From positions 1 through 24,160 of the forward strand of contig JALWSN010000214.1 of assembly GCA_027080245.1 (NCBI GenBank): 24,160 nucleotides of DNA, written 5' to 3'. Shown in pieces: positions 3,786-17,001 of this stretch. The translations under genes and the position numbers were made by a program. Each line of letters begins with the position of its first letter. The first letter of the stretch is position 1. Source of the stretch: Ignavibacteriales bacterium (lineage in GTDB: Bacteria; Bacteroidota; Ignavibacteria; Ignavibacteriales; Melioribacteraceae). The notes below the pieces were generated by a model that worked only from the letters and a program-made list of their open reading frames with translations, made no database searches and was not told where the DNA came from.

Positions 3786-5136
3786 GATTGACATCCTTGG
3801 CGCAATGGTTCTTAGCAAGGACATTGCAATAGATGCCGAAATGCGTTTGCGGGAAAAATATTTCGAGACGTTCGCGGCTAAACAATTGTTTCGGATTATT
3901 CTTGAGCTTTGGGCTTTGGAAATCCAACCGGATGTTGTTTCGATTTACAATGCCGTTTTGCAAAAGGAACTTGATAAGAAAATTAAAATTGAAGAAATAA
4001 CAAAAGTTACAGATGTTCTGATTACTTCAAATTATGCTTACAATTCCGCTTTATTGATTGAAAATTATTTGCGAAAATTATTGCAGGAAAAGGCAAAGAA
4101 AATCGATTTTGAAAATAAGGCTCAGGATATTTTCGAAATTTACGAGAACTACATCAATGAATTGAATCTTACTCTCAACGAGGTTAGCACAGAAGAACTG
4201 CCTACTGCAAAACAATTACTTGAGGAAGTAATTACCGAAATGGAATTGGAAAGGGAAGGGGAAATTGAACCGGCAATTTATTCGAAACAATTTCCTTCCC
4301 TCAATTACATCGACGGTTTACGGAAAGGAAATATGATGACCATTTCCGGACAGCAGAAAGCGGGGAAATCAACTTTCGGAATTGCTCTGATTGTTGACTT
4401 TGCAATTAGGCAGGGAAAGAAAGCAGCAATAATTTCGCTTGAAATGACACGGAAAGAAGTAATGCAAAAGATGATTGCGCAGGCTACACGAACTCGTTAC
4501 GGCTATCTCAGGAATCCGGCTAAGAAGAATAAGCACGGAAAGTTCAAATATTCCGACGAGCGATTTCTCGAAACAAAAGAGAAAGCCGCGAGGGAACTAT
4601 CGACTGAAGATGTTTATATTTTTGACAACTTAATGCAGGAAAGCGAAATTAGAGCAAAGATTAAGTTCTTAGTTGAGCGCAAAGGTGTTGAAATAATTAT
4701 GATTGATTACATCGGATTGATTCAAACCTCAGTAAGACGAGAGCGGCGGGATTTGGAAGTTGCTGCACTTAGCCGTGGGTTCAAGACTTTAGCGCAAAAA
4801 CTTAATTGTATTATGATTATTCTTTCTCAGGAAAATACTGAGAAGAAAATTGCCGAAAGTAAAGCGCTTGCTCGTGATTCCGATTTCTGGATTTCAATTT
4901 CGAGACCGATTGATGAATCGAATAAGGAATATGAGAAATTTATTAACCGGCACGGAGTAGAACAGGAAGTTAAGATTGACAATTCTCTATTCAAAGTTTT
5001 GATTCGTGCAAGCAGGCATTCGGCTGCCGGTGGGAAATTCTACACTTACCTAATGCCTTATGGAGAAATGGTTGAGTTGGATACTGAGCATCAATTGGAA
5101 TTGCAAGAGCCACAAAAAGAGGAGACCCCGATATGA
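3772..5136 (+). CDS. dnaB: DnaB-like (SF4) replicative helicase
   Basis: N-terminal LEIDILGAMV, Walker A-like ISGQQKAGKST, SLEM motif, Walker B-like IMIDYIGLI; start placed at TTG 3772 (GGAG at 3761-3764). Confidence 0.88.
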   Translation: MKQLEIDILGAMVLSKDIAIDAEMRLREKYFETFAAKQLFRIILELWALEIQPDVVSIYNAVLQKELDKKIKIEEITKVTDVLITSNYAYNSALLIENYLRKLLQEKAKKIDFENKAQDIFEIYENYINELNLTLNEVSTEELPTAKQLLEEVITEMELEREGEIEPAIYSKQFPSLNYIDGLRKGNMMTISGQQKAGKSTFGIALIVDFAIRQGKKAAIISLEMTRKEVMQKMIAQATRTRYGYLRNPAKKNKHGKFKYSDERFLETKEKAARELSTEDVYIFDNLMQESEIRAKIKFLVERKGVEIIMIDYIGLIQTSVRRERRDLEVAALSRGFKTLAQKLNCIMIILSQENTEKKIAESKALARDSDFWISISRPIDESNKEYEKFINRHGVEQEVKIDNSLFKVLIRASRHSAAGGKFYTYLMPYGEMVELDTEHQLELQEPQKEETPI

Positions 5137-7745: not shown

Positions 7746-8274
7746 AACCAAACTCATTGACGTTCATACTCTTGCTCAATTCTGGGGTGTAGATGTTCGC
7801 ACGGTGCAGAATTATGCTGACGCTCGTTACGCACAACCTCCACTTCCGAGAGAGGCGCGCGGGAAATATGATTTCGTCAAAGCAATGAAATGGATGTATG
7901 AATACCAAAAAAAGAAAATAGAGGTATTAGAAACTTCCGGCGACGAAAAACTCCACGCACTCCGAATGCGCGGGCAAATAATTAAGAATAAAAAAGACGA
8001 AATTGCACTTAAGCGGGAGCTTGGGCAATTGCTCGATAAGAAAACGACATTGATTGCTTGGACGAACCAAATCAATGTGATTAAGAATTATCTTAATAGT
8101 CTCAAATATGACCTTACCCGAGACCTTGAGGATATTGTTGGCAAGGATGTTTTCACTCTGATGAAAGAAATAATCGAGCAAAACATTGACCGGATAATGG
8201 AAATAATTTCCAATCTTGAAATTGAGAAATATGTAATTGATGAAGAAAAACTATTGGAAGAAGAAGATAAATGA
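7738..8274 (+). CDS. terS: Terminase small subunit (Nu1-like)
   Basis: N-terminal wHTH LAQFWGVDVRTVQNY, coiled-coil middle, immediately upstream of large subunit. Confidence 0.8.
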   Translation: MAETKLIDVHTLAQFWGVDVRTVQNYADARYAQPPLPREARGKYDFVKAMKWMYEYQKKKIEVLETSGDEKLHALRMRGQIIKNKKDEIALKRELGQLLDKKTTLIAWTNQINVIKNYLNSLKYDLTRDLEDIVGKDVFTLMKEIIEQNIDRIMEIISNLEIEKYVIDEEKLLEEEDK

Positions 8275-10259
8275 ATCCGGCGTTAAAAGAATATAGCAAA
8301 TATATTGACGACATTTCTCAAAAATATCTTTACGGAAATGTTGAAGAAGTAATGCGCCGGAGCTTGCAAATTCTGAAACCTCCTGCACGAATCCCAATAG
8401 TGGAATGGGCGGAGCGGAATATTATTCTTGACGAAACTTCGCCTATTCCGGGACCGTTCCGAATTATCAATTCGCCACATCTTAAGGAAATTTTCGAGGC
8501 AATCGAAGATCCGGAAGTTCACAAAATTACCATTATGGGCTCGGCACAAATGGGAAAGACATTGCTTGAAATGATTGTGTGGGCATACTTTGTTGACCAA
8601 GATCCGTCGCCAATGTTAATAATGCACCCTAATGATAGGGAAGTAAGAAGTTTTGCGCTACACAAATTGGAGCCGCTGATTAACAACTCTGCAATATTGC
8701 GGGAAAAGGTTGCAAAGAAAAAGCGTGGAAGTTCGACGGACAGTTCCACACGCCTCAAAATGTACCCGGGCGGGTGGACGGAAATTATTTCCGGTACGGC
8801 AAAGGGAACTACACGCCAGCGTTCCGTGCGCAGAATAATTGCAGATGACATCGACGCAATTGAGATGTCTGTTTCTTCTGAAGGTGATCACGTGATGAAT
8901 CTTGAGAAGCGGACGGCGGCGTACAAATACAATTATCTGCACATACTCATTTCCACGCCGCGCGTGGAAGGAGAAAGCCGTATTGAGGCGCGCTACAAAG
9001 AAGGAAGTATGGGAAAATATTCCGTCAAATGTCCGCATTGCGGAACGGTGCAATATTTTCAAGAAGACCAGCTCGTTTGGGATAAGGATTTCGATTTAGT
9101 CGGCAATGTGATTAAGCACTATCCTGAAACAGCAAAGGTTGCCTGCCGTGGCTGTGGTGCTGTCTTTTCGGAAAAAGAAAGAATCGAATTACTTCGAAAT
9201 GGCTTCTACGTCCACGAGCATCCCGAGCGTAAAAGTCACCGCTCCTTTTGGCTCAATCAAATAATGAGCACGCTTTCAGACCTCAAAACAATCGTTGCCG
9301 AGAAAATCCGCGCCGAGCAAGCCTACGAAAATGGTGATGACGAGACTTACGAAAGCTATGTAAACACAACTCTCGGTTTGCCTTACAAGCGCACAAAAGG
9401 AAAGGAAACCGACGCCAAATATTTGATTGACCGCCGTGAGGATTATATTAACATTGACAATCCGAAAATACCGAACGGCGTTCTGCTGATTACCTCTGCA
9501 GTGGATGTGCAGGCGGGAAGCGGCACAAAACCGGCACGCCTCGAAGTTGAAACTTGGGGCTGGGGCTCCGGTGAGGAGGCGTGGATTCTCGACAAATTTG
9601 TTTTGCCGGGCAATCTCGAAAAGGAAGGCGTTTGGACTAAGCTCGATAATTATTGGCGAAACAAAACCTTTGAGAGAGAGGACGGCGTGAAATTGAAAAT
9701 TACACGCAAAGGAATTGACTCCGGTTATCTTACGCAAACGGTTTATGAATTTTGCGCTGGAAAATTTCCGACGCAAAATGTTCTTGCTCTCAAGGGAGCA
9801 GTAAAATACGGAGCTCCACTCGTGCCAAAAAAATTGACGGATGCTAACAACGGCAAAACCGCCTTAATGATGATTGGCACGCAAGCCGCAAAAACAATTT
9901 TATTTAACCGGCTGAATGAAATTAAAGAGCCGGGCAAAAAATATATTCACTTCACAAAAGCATTTTGCGATGTGGAATACTTTGATCAGCTCACTGCCGA
10001 GCACGCCGTAACAAAAACAATTGGAATGAATCAATACATTGTTTATGAGCCGAAAAAACGGGGCTTGGCAAACGAAGCATTGGACTTGCTTGTAATGAAT
10101 TACACACTGATGAAATCGCTCAATCCTAATTTCGAGAGCCTTGAGGCAAGCATTGAAAAACACAAAACCGGAACTAAGCAAGAAGAAGAACCGGATAAAC
10201 CGAAAAAAGCAAAAAGGAAAATCATTAAACCGAGGAAGAATTTTGTAACGGGATTCTAA
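8271..10259 (+). CDS. terL: Terminase large subunit, lambda gpA family
   Basis: GSAQMGKT Walker A, IADDIDA Walker B, ISTP, CPHC/CRGC zinc knuckles, SAVDVQ and IDSGY nuclease motifs, NEALDLLVM. Confidence 0.96.
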   Translation: MNPALKEYSKYIDDISQKYLYGNVEEVMRRSLQILKPPARIPIVEWAERNIILDETSPIPGPFRIINSPHLKEIFEAIEDPEVHKITIMGSAQMGKTLLEMIVWAYFVDQDPSPMLIMHPNDREVRSFALHKLEPLINNSAILREKVAKKKRGSSTDSSTRLKMYPGGWTEIISGTAKGTTRQRSVRRIIADDIDAIEMSVSSEGDHVMNLEKRTAAYKYNYLHILISTPRVEGESRIEARYKEGSMGKYSVKCPHCGTVQYFQEDQLVWDKDFDLVGNVIKHYPETAKVACRGCGAVFSEKERIELLRNGFYVHEHPERKSHRSFWLNQIMSTLSDLKTIVAEKIRAEQAYENGDDETYESYVNTTLGLPYKRTKGKETDAKYLIDRREDYINIDNPKIPNGVLLITSAVDVQAGSGTKPARLEVETWGWGSGEEAWILDKFVLPGNLEKEGVWTKLDNYWRNKTFEREDGVKLKITRKGIDSGYLTQTVYEFCAGKFPTQNVLALKGAVKYGAPLVPKKLTDANNGKTALMMIGTQAAKTILFNRLNEIKEPGKKYIHFTKAFCDVEYFDQLTAEHAVTKTIGMNQYIVYEPKKRGLANEALDLLVMNYTLMKSLNPNFESLEASIEKHKTGTKQEEEPDKPKKAKRKIIKPRKNFVTGF

Positions 10260-10480
10260 TGGAAGAATTAATAGTCCACGAAATAGCGAACATTGCACGT
10301 AATCTCGGCATACTTAATGAGCGGGCATACCGCAACCTTTGCATCCGTATGGATTTCGATAAGATGCGCCGGGAAGGCGTGCGTGTTGAAGAAGCGGAAA
10401 TAATTCTTTCGGAAAAATATTCAAGCGCAAAATCAAAAATTACACCGGAAACTATTCATAGTATTCTTTATCGGCGGTGA
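10259..10480 (+). CDS. Small HTH protein, Mor/late-activator-like C-terminal pattern
   Basis: RNLCIR..F...G...LSEKY...TPETIHSILY; TAATG coupling to terL. Confidence 0.5.
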   Translation: MEELIVHEIANIARNLGILNERAYRNLCIRMDFDKMRREGVRVEEAEIILSEKYSSAKSKITPETIHSILYRR

Positions 10481-10520
10481 AAAAAAATCAAAAAAAATTA
10501 AAATTTTTTTCATTTTTTAC

Positions 10521-10549
10521 TTGACAAACTATAACAAATATGTTATATT
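10521..10549 (+). promoter_or_regulatory. Near-consensus sigma70 promoter of accessory operon
   Basis: TTGACA (10521-26), 17-nt spacer, TGt TATATT (extended -10, 10544-49), A/T-tract UP-like region 10481-10520. Confidence 0.85.
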
Positions 10550-10550
10550 T
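10527..10550. promoter_or_regulatory. Inverted-repeat operator overlapping spacer and -10
   Basis: AACTATAACA-aata-TGTTATATTT; perfect 7-bp arms TATAACA/TGTTATA, 9 of 10 when extended. Confidence 0.65.
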
Positions 10551-10594
10551 GAAGTGTAAAAATTAAGTTCTTAAACAAAATGTAAAACAAAAAA

Positions 10595-10611
10595 CTCTGG
10601 CGACAACAGAG
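10595..10611 (+). promoter_or_regulatory. 5' UTR hairpin
   Basis: CTCTG-gcgacaa-CAGAG, the only G+C-rich patch in the A-rich leader. Confidence 0.45.
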
Positions 10612-10638
10612 GATAAAAAATTCGGTAGGAGGTTTAAA

Positions 10639-11244
10639 ATGAAATTTCAAGACAAAAACTGGGACGAAACTTACGAAGTAAAAAATCCTGAAATATTAGA
10701 AGATGCTCTCGAATATTTTTTGGATTTCGAATTTGAGACGGAGTGGTTCGAAGACAAATATGAATACGACCATACTGCAACAGAAGTAGTAAATTGGTCT
10801 TTAGGGGATATTGAGACCATTTACGAGGTCGTAGATGAAAATGGTCGAGAAGGGCTATTAGATATAGCTTCAAATATTTTTATTCCTGATGCAACGTACG
10901 AAGACGGAGTAGTAGTTTTCTTTTTTTGGGATGGTGTTTCTGTCCGTTGGAGTGTTGCAGAGACGGTAGAAAAAGCAAAAGCAAATGCCCTAATCGATAT
11001 GATTGAAGACAAAGGGTATGAATGCAGATATGAAGAAGGTTCTGATTATATTTTTGTTTCCGGTAGTGTTGCCGAAATGATAGATGAACCTGCTTATTGG
11101 AATCTCGATACAGATGAATTTGCTCCCGAAGAATCAGATGATCCTCGAGATTGGGATAATAATGGAGAATTTTTTCTCTCTGTTTTTGAGATAAATGGAA
11201 AAGGAGAGATTATTATTTCGATTTCAGATTTTTGGGAAAAATAA
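10639..11244 (+). CDS. Highly acidic hypothetical protein; candidate DNA-mimic/anti-defence protein
   Basis: Hand count 54 D+E versus 13 K+R in 201 aa; rich in W/Y/F; AGGAGG RBS; first gene behind strong promoter. Confidence 0.8.
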   Translation: MKFQDKNWDETYEVKNPEILEDALEYFLDFEFETEWFEDKYEYDHTATEVVNWSLGDIETIYEVVDENGREGLLDIASNIFIPDATYEDGVVVFFFWDGVSVRWSVAETVEKAKANALIDMIEDKGYECRYEEGSDYIFVSGSVAEMIDEPAYWNLDTDEFAPEESDDPRDWDNNGEFFLSVFEINGKGEIIISISDFWEK

Positions 11245-11247
11245 TTT

Positions 11248-11318
11248 TTTCTCTCCTGGGCGACATAATCCGGAATTAACCGGGTCCATTACAACAAGGC
11301 GTGCGTCCGGGGGAGAAG
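11248..11318 (+). ncRNA. Putative structured RNA element (long closing stem with inner hairpin)
   Basis: TTCTCTCCTGGGCG (11249-62) pairs with CGTCCGGGGGAGAA (11304-17), 14 bp with three G-U pairs; inner ATCCGG-aattaa-CCGGGT hairpin. Confidence 0.5.
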
Positions 11319-11334
11319 CTTTAATAATTGAGAA

Positions 11335-11354
11335 CCTGTCTGACGGCAGGCAGG
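11335..11354. repeat. REP-like 20-nt palindrome
   Basis: CCTGTCTG-acgg-CAGGCAGG, 8-bp stem with one G-T pair. Confidence 0.6.
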
Positions 11355-11380
11355 TGAAAAATGAAAAATTAAAAATGAAT
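11353..11380 (+). repeat. Heptamer tandem repeat (x4)
   Basis: ggtgaaa aatgaaa aattaaa aatgaat. Confidence 0.65.
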
Positions 11381-11696
11381 GGAACATCTGAATCGAAATA
11401 GAGAGAAATTAGCAAAGCTGCTCAAGGAGCGCAGGGAGGAGCTTGGCTTAACGCAGCAGCAGCTTGCTGAAAAAACCGGTTTCAAACAACCGACAATTGC
11501 GCGGATTGAAGCCGGAAAATTTTTCATAAATACAAAGCAATTATTTGTTTTGTGTGAGGCTTTGAAACTCAGAATTATTTTAAGCGAGTCTGAAAAATTT
11601 GAAATTAAGAAAGAGGAGAAAGATGATGATACTATTTATAAGAAGAAGGCTATCTTTATGGGAATATTATTTATATTATTTCTTTATTTGTCATAG
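11379..11696 (+). CDS. XRE-family HTH regulator (Aca-like position)
   Basis: LKERREELGLTQQQLAEKTGFKQPTIARIEAGK is a canonical HTH_3; hydrophobic C-terminal tail overlaps next ORF. Confidence 0.88.
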   Translation: MEHLNRNREKLAKLLKERREELGLTQQQLAEKTGFKQPTIARIEAGKFFINTKQLFVLCEALKLRIILSESEKFEIKKEEKDDDTIYKKKAIFMGILFILFLYLS

Positions 11697-11904
11697 ATAT
11701 AAAGGGAAATTATTAGCGATATCTTTTGATGAAATAAAAGAAGAAGTTGATAAATGTTTAAAAGAATATAATATTAGAAAGTTTTTTAGAAGAGATAAGG
11801 GTAAAATAGAAATATATTCGGGGGCTAAAAAGATTAAACAAAAAAAGGAAATTAAACTGATTGCTTATGATGATTTGGAGAAAAATAAAAAAAAGGAGAA
11901 TTAA
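11623..11904 (+). CDS. Basic hypothetical protein
   Basis: ATG 11623 with GAGGAG RBS at 11613-18; AT-rich; overlaps XRE gene by 74 nt. Confidence 0.6.
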   Translation: MMILFIRRRLSLWEYYLYYFFICHRYKGKLLAISFDEIKEEVDKCLKEYNIRKFFRRDKGKIEIYSGAKKIKQKKEIKLIAYDDLEKNKKKEN

Positions 11905-11905
11905 A

Positions 11906-12244
11906 ATGGATATCGAAAAATTAAATGATTTACCCGAGCAAATAGTAAAAACATTAAAAGGAAGATTTCCTAAAATATCGGGAAAGACAAAAATACTTTC
12001 GGGATTGAAAGAGGAGATAACAATTCCTGTTTCTGCAGAAAGCAGGGATATTGTTGGACGTAAAAAAATCGAAGAAATGACTATTAAAGAATTAATGCAA
12101 ATTGTAAATGAACCGCAGTTTGATATTAAAGAGAAAAAATATAACCCAATAATAGAATTGGGCGACGATCCAATTTTAGGGTTTAACTACTGTGAGGAAA
12201 GAGATGCTTTATTAATTTGGGAAAGAAATTTATTTGAAAATTAA
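11906..12244 (+). CDS. Hypothetical protein
   Basis: ATG 11906 with AAGGAG RBS, one base after upstream stop. Confidence 0.7.
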   Translation: MDIEKLNDLPEQIVKTLKGRFPKISGKTKILSGLKEEITIPVSAESRDIVGRKKIEEMTIKELMQIVNEPQFDIKEKKYNPIIELGDDPILGFNYCEERDALLIWERNLFEN

Positions 12245-12281
12245 ATAGTTATTAAAACCTTTAAAATCCCTCAAATTTTAA

Positions 12282-12305
12282 AAGGGTGTGAAATTTCACA
12301 CCCTT
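12282..12305. other. Perfect 24-bp palindrome (terminator-like hairpin or dimer binding site)
   Basis: AAGGGTGTGAAA|TTTCACACCCTT is its own reverse complement. Confidence 0.8.
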
Positions 12306-12435
12306 GACCTTCCAAATCTTTCGATTTTCGTCGAAAAACCCACAAAAAAAATTACAAAAAAGATGAATTTTACACTAACGCTCGAAAAAAAAATGTATTA
12401 TATATACGGCGAATTTTTTGGAGATGTTTTTGTAA

Positions 12436-12969
12436 ATGACATTAGAATTCGCCAATCAGACATTATACGCCGGTGCAACTTGGAGTTGGACGGAAGAAAT
12501 TGATGACTATCCTGCCTCAGAGGGTTGGACGCTTACCATTCTTCTCAAACACAATACCGATAATGCGGTAACCTTAACTGCAACGGCTTCCGGTGATGAT
12601 TACGAATTCAATATTAGTGCTGACGACACAAAGCAATTCACAAAAAGAAACTACATTTACCAAGGCATAATCACAAAGACCGGCGAAGTCAATATAATTG
12701 ATGAAGGCGAAGTTGAAATTTTTCCGAAGTTAGATGTTGCCTCTGACCTAAGGACCGATAATGAAATTATTCTCGATGCAATTGTTGCCGCGTTGAAAAG
12801 TAGAGCAACGAAAGAACAGCAATCTATTTCCATTGCCGGTCGGCAAATACAATACCTCTCATTGCAAGAATTAACCGATGCAAAAAAATATTACGAGAGC
12901 TTGGTGGCAAAAGAGAAACGTGTGGCTGCGGGAAAAACCGGCACGCCGAGAGTTCTGGAGGAATATTAA
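12436..12969 (+). CDS. Head-tail joining protein (gpW-like C-terminus) with N-terminal extension
   Basis: C-terminal ILDAIVAAL...QSISIAGRQIQYLSLQEL pattern; position directly before portal. Confidence 0.72.
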   Translation: MTLEFANQTLYAGATWSWTEEIDDYPASEGWTLTILLKHNTDNAVTLTATASGDDYEFNISADDTKQFTKRNYIYQGIITKTGEVNIIDEGEVEIFPKLDVASDLRTDNEIILDAIVAALKSRATKEQQSISIAGRQIQYLSLQELTDAKKYYESLVAKEKRVAAGKTGTPRVLEEY

Positions 12970-16708: not shown

Positions 16709-17001
16709 TGGATATTCCGGTTGCCGAATTTTTCAACACGGGCTTGGAAGAGGATGCCGTTCTCACAACGGCATCCGCAAGCTCGTCAATTAAGGTGCAT
16801 TTTCTTAATGAATACGAGTCGCTTGGAGCGGAGATACAATTCGAATCTTCTAATCTGCAAGTCTATGCACAAACAAGCGATGTTGAAAACGCTACTCAAG
16901 GGGATAAGCTCTCAATTAATGGAACTGATTATTACATTCTTGAGATGCACCCGGACGGCACTGGAATTACTACGATTCTCTTAAGTGAGGAACAACCGTG
17001 A
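16708..17001 (+). CDS. Head-tail joining / head closure protein (gpFII-like)
   Basis: TSDVENATQGDKLSINGTDYYILEMHPDGTGITTILL beta-barrel pattern; position. Confidence 0.75.
   Translation: MDIPVAEFFNTGLEEDAVLTTASASSSIKVHFLNEYESLGAEIQFESSNLQVYAQTSDVENATQGDKLSINGTDYYILEMHPDGTGITTILLSEEQP

Follow-up and report, generated by a model that had tools for sequence, protein, structure and literature searches.

A 71-base structured RNA has been identified on the + strand of a phage-derived contig, in a cassette which also carries a cargo gene and an HTH repressor-type gene. The RNA is strongly and strand-specifically folded, and it presents in an unpaired loop the 15-mer TCCATTACAACAAGG, which is the conserved core of the CRISPR repeats found, together with Cas6b, in the family of the host and, among others, in two sister species. 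Our tentative reading is that this RNA may be a handle-less decoy for Cas6b held on a stable scaffold. A plain intercistronic stem is a close competitor of this reading, and the evidence bearing on both is laid out below.

Phage context and organisation of the cassette

The window analysed here is the entire 24,160-nucleotide contig C214 of the MAG G000 (Ignavibacteriales bacterium), the assembly of which comprises 2.79 Mb in 636 contigs with 40% G+C and is 90.7% complete. Its long ORFs lie without exception on the + strand, and its gene content was found by Pfam and PHROG searches to be that of a lambda-like packaging and head module. An inserted unit is present between a 73-aa ORF and the head-tail joining gene. 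In this unit a promoter, a 5'-UTR hairpin, a 201-aa orphan gene (the cargo), the structured RNA, a palindrome and the HTH gene follow one another in that order (Table 1).

Table 1. Positions of the features described in the window and of the parts of the structured RNA.
Feature	Position	Strand	Remarks
DNA methylase and small terminase genes		+	part of the packaging/head module
Large terminase, GpA-type	8271-10259	+	
73-aa ORF	10259-10480	+	without family match
Cassette promoter, TTGACA-17-TATATT with TG	10521-10549	+	11/12 consensus positions
Inverted repeat TATAACAAATATGTTATA, 18 bp	10530-10547		overlaps the cassette promoter
5'-UTR hairpin, loop GCGACAA	10595-10611	+	read off the sequence
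Cargo gene, acidic 201-aa protein	10639-11244	+	without family match
Protospacer in cargo gene	10961-10997	+	complementary to the leader-proximal spacer, C632 2379-2415
Structured RNA, 71 bases	11248-11318	+	RNAfold, shuffles, 361-nt context fold
P1 clamp, 15 bp	11248-11262 with 11304-11318	+	
P1b extension, 3 bp	11264-11266 with 11301-11303	+	
P2 hairpin, 6 bp	11268-11273 with 11280-11285	+	
15-mer TCCATTACAACAAGG	11285-11299	+	loop unpaired
REP-like palindrome AACCTGTCTGACGGCAGGCAGGT	11333-11355	+	dispersed host-genus element
XRE-type HTH gene, Aca-like	11379-11696	+	conserved cassette anchor; HTH_3 E 2.9e-12
Head-tail joining protein	12436-12969	+	
Lambda-family portal and capsid genes		+	part of the packaging/head module

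The inverted repeat TATAACAAATATGTTATA is likely to be the operator for the HTH protein of the cassette, and conservation of the promoter region extends to the homologous cassettes L056 and L140. The loop of the 5'-UTR hairpin is also found in L140 (about 2253-2271), where the stem is changed on both sides (CTCTG/CAGAG vs CTTG/CAAG), and this conserved hairpin is possibly a regulatory RNA site for the HTH protein. Altogether three related cassettes were recovered, one in G013 (contig C18, L056), one on a metagenome contig (L140) and one on an IMG/VR contig (L002). Their resemblance to the present cassette, at 43-67% identity, lies in the promoter/operator region, in the HTH protein or in both, and their cargo consists of unrelated small genes which overlap or abut the HTH gene. 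An intergenic RNA like that at 11248-11318 was found in none of the three, and the structured RNA therefore lies outside the conserved cassette frame, having arrived with, or been added to, the present cargo.

In the G076 prophage (G076:C55, L046 1-1073, minus strand), which has a terminase 80% identical to that of the window, a gene for a homing endonuclease of HNH/AP2-like type (224 aa) occupies the slot of the cassette. The slot is thus one in which the cargo can be exchanged while the repressor gene anchors it. The context of the cassette is acr-aca-like, with the HTH gene placed 3' of variable small cargo genes and the promoter furnished with an inverted-repeat operator, and the cargo gene can be regarded as a candidate for an anti-defence protein. 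Pfam and PHROG searches with the cargo protein gave no match, no relatives of it were found in IMG/VR, and among 5.8 billion proteins it retrieved only itself.

The REP-like palindrome (AACCTGCCTGNCGGCAGGCAGGT) has AT-rich, partly complementary flanks. When strand-hits were counted, a palindromic site being scored once per strand, 88 were obtained in G002, 17 in G008, 12 in G003 and one each in G001 and G000, against 0 for the reversed-pattern control; the single G000 copy is the phage copy. This distribution hints that the phage DNA was once in G002- or G003-like hosts, of which G002 has Cas6b. The palindrome itself is probably a transcription terminator or serves to stabilise mRNA.

Fold of the structured RNA

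The RNA starts 3 nt past the stop codon of the cargo gene and occupies the intergenic region before the HTH gene, forming an island of 55% G+C in comparison to 33% in the 200 bases upstream. The initial annotation had described this island as folding into a 14-bp stem with three non-Watson-Crick positions, all G-U compatible on the + strand, which encloses a 6-bp hairpin together with the 15-mer. RNAfold reproduces this arrangement with a 15-bp P1 containing three internal non-Watson-Crick pairs (U11254-G11312, U11257-G11309 and G11260-U11306), and with P2 and the 15-mer enclosed by it. The minimum free energy on the + strand is -32.1 kcal/mol as compared to -19.1 +/- 2.9 kcal/mol in 200 dinucleotide shuffles, none of which was as good (z -4.48). 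The reverse complement folds weakly (-18.6 kcal/mol, z -0.39) because the G-U pairs of P1 turn into C-A on the minus strand. Within a 361-nt context, 13 of the 15 P1 pairs have a probability of at least 0.97, and the core loop 11288-11297 is unpaired with a probability of 0.94.

This fold is strong but not unique within the contig. Among about 2,400 windows of 90 nt on the + strand it takes 4th place by raw energy, and the more stable ones lie inside G+C-richer coding sequence. No intrinsic terminator, defined as a G+C-rich stem with a U tract, was found on the + strand in 10400-12500, and the tail of the RNA reads CUUUAAUAAUU. Relative to the RNase III yardstick of about two turns of dsRNA, the RNA offers a helix of 15 bp and, beyond a 1-nt bulge, 3 bp more.

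Hairpins of very high stability are also present elsewhere in the window, at 411-500 (-29.6/-27.3 kcal/mol) and at 16741-16830 (-33.8/-31.1 kcal/mol). As the two strands are about equal in both cases, these correspond either to palindromes at the DNA level or to bidirectional terminators and differ in this from the strand-specific RNA at 11248-11318.

Other identities were considered for the RNA and rejected. Neither a tRNA nor a tmRNA was found in the sequence, and no known Rfam family was obtained at the gathering score, the partial matches to RT-13, freshwater-1, RAGATH-22 and SpR14 being weak and at chance level. An integron attC site was discarded on reading the sequence, in which the RYYYAAC/GTTRRRY boxes are absent and the wrong strand folds. 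An 18-mer of the RNA gave 0 matches in IMG/VR, BLAST against 60 relatives and 400 genomes of the order returned coding-region chance matches only (G053, G081), and no homologue was present in the fetched loci or in the INPHARED phage collection. Since no RNA homologue exists in the searched collections, neither covariation nor conservation can decide between a decoy and a stem.

Likeness of the loop to DR7-type CRISPR repeats

The initial annotation had noted, from the sequence alone, a likeness of the loop to the core of a 37-nt CRISPR repeat with the repeat handle replaced, and both points were borne out. In the alignment with Rfam RF01320 (CRISPR-DR7), 13 of the 14 bases at 11286-11299 are identical to positions 16-29 of the model, with a score of 14.4 bits (gathering score 37) and an E-value of 1.6 for 91 nt searched against all 4227 Rfam families; a search of the entire window against all Rfam families does not report the match, which is not significant at that scale. 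The RNA is not a full DR7 repeat, as model positions 16-29 alone were aligned and CGTGCGTC stands where the 3' ATTGAAAC tag is expected.

Within the host family the agreement is closer. The 15-mer corresponds to positions 15-29 of the 37-nt DR7-type repeats of the family, which form their conserved core, and the structured RNA matches 12 of the 12 fixed core positions of the consensus nTTC-n10-TCCAnnAnAACAAGG-ATTGAAAC derived from seven family repeats. Its identity is 15/15 to a unit in G165 and 14/15 to the repeat of the sister species G002 (Smith-Waterman p < 1/3000 vs shuffles). The likeness starts where the conservation of the repeat starts and stops at the base after which Cas6b cuts; cleavage of a 37-nt repeat by Cas6b yields 29 nt and the 8-nt AUUGAAAC tag (Richter et al. 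2012, PMC3479195). Neither the 8-nt tag nor the TTC found at positions 2-4 of the repeat is present, and 15 of the 37 positions (41%) are matched. Extending the likeness with P2 treated as inserted sequence, which would add ACA in front of the core or align CCGGAATT with ACCGAATT of G165, was tried and was not significant.

The G165 unit (G165:C325 389-428, L224) is a solitary 40-nt DR7-like unit of the form GTTC...ATTGAAAC, containing the exact 15-mer of the window. It is located in a chromosomal intergenic region 3' of a YoeB-like toxin gene.

The weight of this likeness depends on how readily chance would produce it. In the 2.79-Mb assembly the structured RNA is the single site of the core pattern, for which 0.39 occurrences are expected in a genome, 0.0034 in a window and 4e-6 within the RNA element. 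The handle-less pattern has 69 matches in 166 family genomes, or about 0.4 per genome, which is comparable to the chance prediction and to the reversed-pattern control. When 30 other handle-less matches were fetched, 29 were found to lie in ORFs of at least 140 codons, and all of them fold weakly (-4 to -20 kcal/mol per 91 nt). For DR7 alone against the element, arithmetic from the Rfam E-value gives about 4e-4. When the two repeat families of the clade, the two strands and the presence of several candidate elements in a window are taken into account, the chance probability is estimated to be near 1e-3; in a scan of such size this still gives many false positives, and the likeness was noticed post hoc. 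The concordance with the host clade, which was not known when the likeness was first noticed, is independent support.

CRISPR systems of the host and its relatives

A search with RF01320 in 151 genomes of the host family found arrays or single repeats in 17, of which 8 are above the cut-off, and these include G001 and G002. These two, out of three sister species, each combine DR7-type repeats with a Cas6b gene. In G001 (contig C69, L238) the locus consists of cas6b-cas1-cas2-cas4, a leader and one DR7 repeat, and no second repeat was found across the remaining 321 nt to the contig end. The G001 Cas6b, encoded at L238:2470-3147 on the minus strand, contains the Pfam domains Cas6b_N and Cas6b_C; its match to PDB 4Z7K is at 1e-41, and the Cas6b of G002 is 62% identical to the G001 protein.

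Neither a DR7 repeat nor Cas6b was found in the G000 assembly, at its completeness of 90.7%. The only assembled array of this MAG, on contig C632, accompanies cas1-cas2 and has a 30-nt repeat ending in ATTGAGAT, and contig C614 carries cas6 and then the start of cas10/csm1, which are type III-A genes. The comparison of the core with repeat families and with the arrays of the host, set in advance as the check on the annotation, showed the core to be shared by RF01320, with DR7-type repeats in 17 of 151 family genomes, but gave no likeness to the 30-nt repeat of the MAG itself. This repeat has TAATC(C)GGA in common with the structured RNA, but at p 0.41 the resemblance was rejected. Among the genomes of the family, 8 of 166 have 30-nt repeats and 17 of 151 have 37-nt repeats, and two repeat systems are likewise found in Clostridium thermocellum (PMC3479195).

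The newest spacer of the MAG corresponds to the cargo gene, with 31 of 37 positions identical (30 of 36 in the scored alignment), a match for which we estimate a chance probability of about 1e-6 for the whole genome. The spacer is oriented such that its crRNA would pair with the cargo mRNA, as type III targeting requires, and this fits the III-A genes on C614. From this match it follows that the MAG has already met a relative of the cassette; the six mismatches are spread across all codon positions, which indicates that the spacer came from a diverged relative. No spacers against the phage were found in 26 family loci with CRISPR arrays or single repeats.

Comparison with known systems

The suggestion that the RNA is a solitary-repeat decoy of the Racr kind was sustained in part. 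The acr-aca-like cassette, the sense orientation and the unpaired display of the core agree with it, but 15 of 37 repeat positions are kept and the thresholds for solitary repeat units are failed. SRUFinder defines such units by a repeat coverage of at least 90% (partial, 50-90%) and a bit score of at least 41.1 (PMC10651486), and the structured RNA attains 41% and 14.4 bits. It is solitary, with one core-pattern copy in the assembly, and intergenic on a contig bearing terminase, portal and capsid genes. Because the defining thresholds are failed and the search of the MAG gave no CRISPR-Cas system of the matching type, the RNA is not classed as a Racr.

Like RacrIF1 and RacrIC1 (Camara-Wilpert et al. 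2023, PMC10651486), the structured RNA is intergenic, solitary, phage-borne and similar to a CRISPR repeat of the host clade. It is also located in an acr-aca-like locus with predicted co-transcription with a candidate protein inhibitor, in the manner of RacrIC1, which is co-transcribed with AcrIC5 (PMC10651486). Inhibition by RacrIF1 persists when its 5' handle is mutated, and the active species is the product that lies 5' of the Cas6f site (PMC10651486); the 8-nt handle is dispensable for inhibition by RacrIF1, and the structured RNA is without the tag. Racrs, however, are near-full repeats, whereas the structured RNA keeps 15 of 37 nt and lacks both the tag and the 5' end of the repeat. Moreover, unlike in Racrs, its core is surrounded by a clamp of 18 bp, to which a further hairpin is added.

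The CRISPR-DR7 repeats (RF01320), which are substrates of Cas6b (PMC3479195, PDB 4Z7K/4Z7L), carry the core CCAUUA(A/C)AACAAGG directly 5' of the cut that leaves the AUUGAAAC tag, and a weak CC/GG mini-stem is common to them and the structured RNA. In contrast to these repeats, the structured RNA is of partial length and lies outside an array, without spacer and without tag. With REP-type or other 3' stem-loop stabilisers, and with RNase III sites between cistrons, it has in common a stable stem placed right after a stop codon in an operon. Such elements need no specific loop, whereas the loop of the structured RNA is the conserved repeat recognition block of the host clade.

Proposed mode of action and competing explanations

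As a Cas6b decoy, the RNA would be a module of the phage anti-defence cassette, co-transcribed with the cargo from the promoter at 10521. Cas6b would bind the unpaired loop because it imitates the portion of the repeat that lies 5' of the cut, i.e. the crRNA 3' handle. The bases 3' of the core (CGUG...) are predicted to be paired in P1b/P1, and cleavage may be hindered or may give a product without the 8-nt tag. Cas6b would in this way be titrated away from the pre-crRNA, and the supply of crRNA would fall. The 15+3-bp clamp may protect the RNA, and a small RNA of some 45-55 nt may be set free if RNase III cuts the clamp. The target would be Cas6b-bearing strains of the host genus and not the 30-nt-repeat system of the MAG. 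In a stricter form, which we hold to be rather unlikely, the RNA would be a minimal Cas6b trap, that is, an anti-CRISPR pared down to the 15-nt block, without handle or repeat ends, on a clamp rich in G-U pairs in which the scissile site is hidden, with co-transcribed cargo and perhaps released by RNase III, acting at crRNA maturation alone.

The simpler processing or stabilising stem, named at the outset as the alternative, was found to be almost as likely as the decoy. According to this explanation, which we consider quite possible, the RNA is an ordinary intercistronic stem (an exonuclease block, an RNase III site or a leaky terminator) that uncouples high expression of the cargo from low expression of the repressor, and the 15-mer arose by chance. 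The position of the RNA, 3 nt past the cargo stop, and its 15+3-bp stem near RNase III size are as expected for such an element. Cargo and HTH gene overlap or abut in the homologous cassettes, which implies that coupling has been broken here, deliberately or accidentally. Equally strong hairpins elsewhere in the contig, the chance frequency of handle-less core patterns of about 0.4 per genome and the absence of RNA homologues from the collections searched point in the same direction. On the other side, a U-tract terminator was not found on the + strand, and with a generic host-type hairpin already at 11333-11355, 15 nt 3' of the structured RNA, the clamp would be unneeded merely for ending or protecting the transcript. 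Chance would in addition have to supply the exact repeat block of the clade, in sense orientation, unpaired and ending at the cleavage site, for which the probability lies between 4e-6 and about 1e-3, according to the way in which the look-elsewhere effect is counted.

The full DR7-type solitary repeats seen in viruses (L260, L330) and on a family chromosome (G165) suggest another origin, in which the RNA is the decayed relic of a captured CRISPR repeat, or of a formerly full solitary repeat, that has lost its ends and has no role beyond its hairpins; only the middle of the repeat is left here. We judge this improbable, as decay is unlikely to spare 12 of 12 conserved core positions while replacing every flanking position, and would not build a strand-specific G-U clamp around the core.

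The sequence evidence that speaks for a decoy would serve equally for a docking or cutting site at which Cas6b acts on phage RNA. The cargo mRNA would be cut or capped at 11299 and thereby stabilised or split from the repressor message, without meaningful CRISPR inhibition, and a cut would leave it with a structured, protein-bound 3' end. Expression would then hinge on a host factor missing from many strains, including the MAG as assembled, and the scissile position abuts a helix; this explanation appears more improbable still. Least probable among those considered is a trans-acting small RNA or a protein-binding site unrelated to CRISPR, for example a target of the HTH protein, to which the occurrence of GGCGACA in both P1 and the conserved 5'-UTR hairpin loop and the similarity of ACAACAA to the operator half-site of the G013 cassette would point, but these motifs have only 7 nt and were noticed post hoc, and no target or partner was identified.

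Implications

If the decoy reading is true, RNA anti-CRISPRs can be far shorter than the repeat and hidden in scaffolds, and searches which require 90% repeat coverage undercount them; in the stricter form of a minimal trap, it would also mean that catalogues built on near-full repeats miss a class of partial mimics. To our knowledge, no Racr directed against an I-B Cas6b has been tested so far. The structured RNA would be the first candidate inhibitor of Cas6b-type crRNA maturation (I-B, 37-nt repeat) and could provide a compact Cas6b-blocking RNA tool. If instead the ordinary stem is true, the element is a common intercistronic stem of little interest. The locus is a snapshot of an arms race, with a swappable cassette, a cargo sampled as the newest spacer of the host, a palindrome of the host genus and an RNA mimicking the repeat of sister strains.

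Full solitary repeats in viral contigs

Full solitary DR7-type repeats were found on two IMG/VR contigs of high G+C, in L260 at 3860-3896 (+, 38.1 bits) and in L330 at 3878-3914 (-, 34.5 bits). They are solitary like the structured RNA and have the identical 15-mer core; unlike the structured RNA with its 14.4 bits, they retain ATTGAAAC or ATCGAAAC and the 5' part of the repeat. An I-B entry of the SRUFinder catalogue is likewise solitary, with the TCCATTAAAACAAGG variant, one base off the window core. The L260 and L330 repeats are candidates for classic Racrs of the Cas6b type. In L260, a TTGACA-type promoter-like site is located just upstream of the repeat, and hairpins with a T-run follow downstream.
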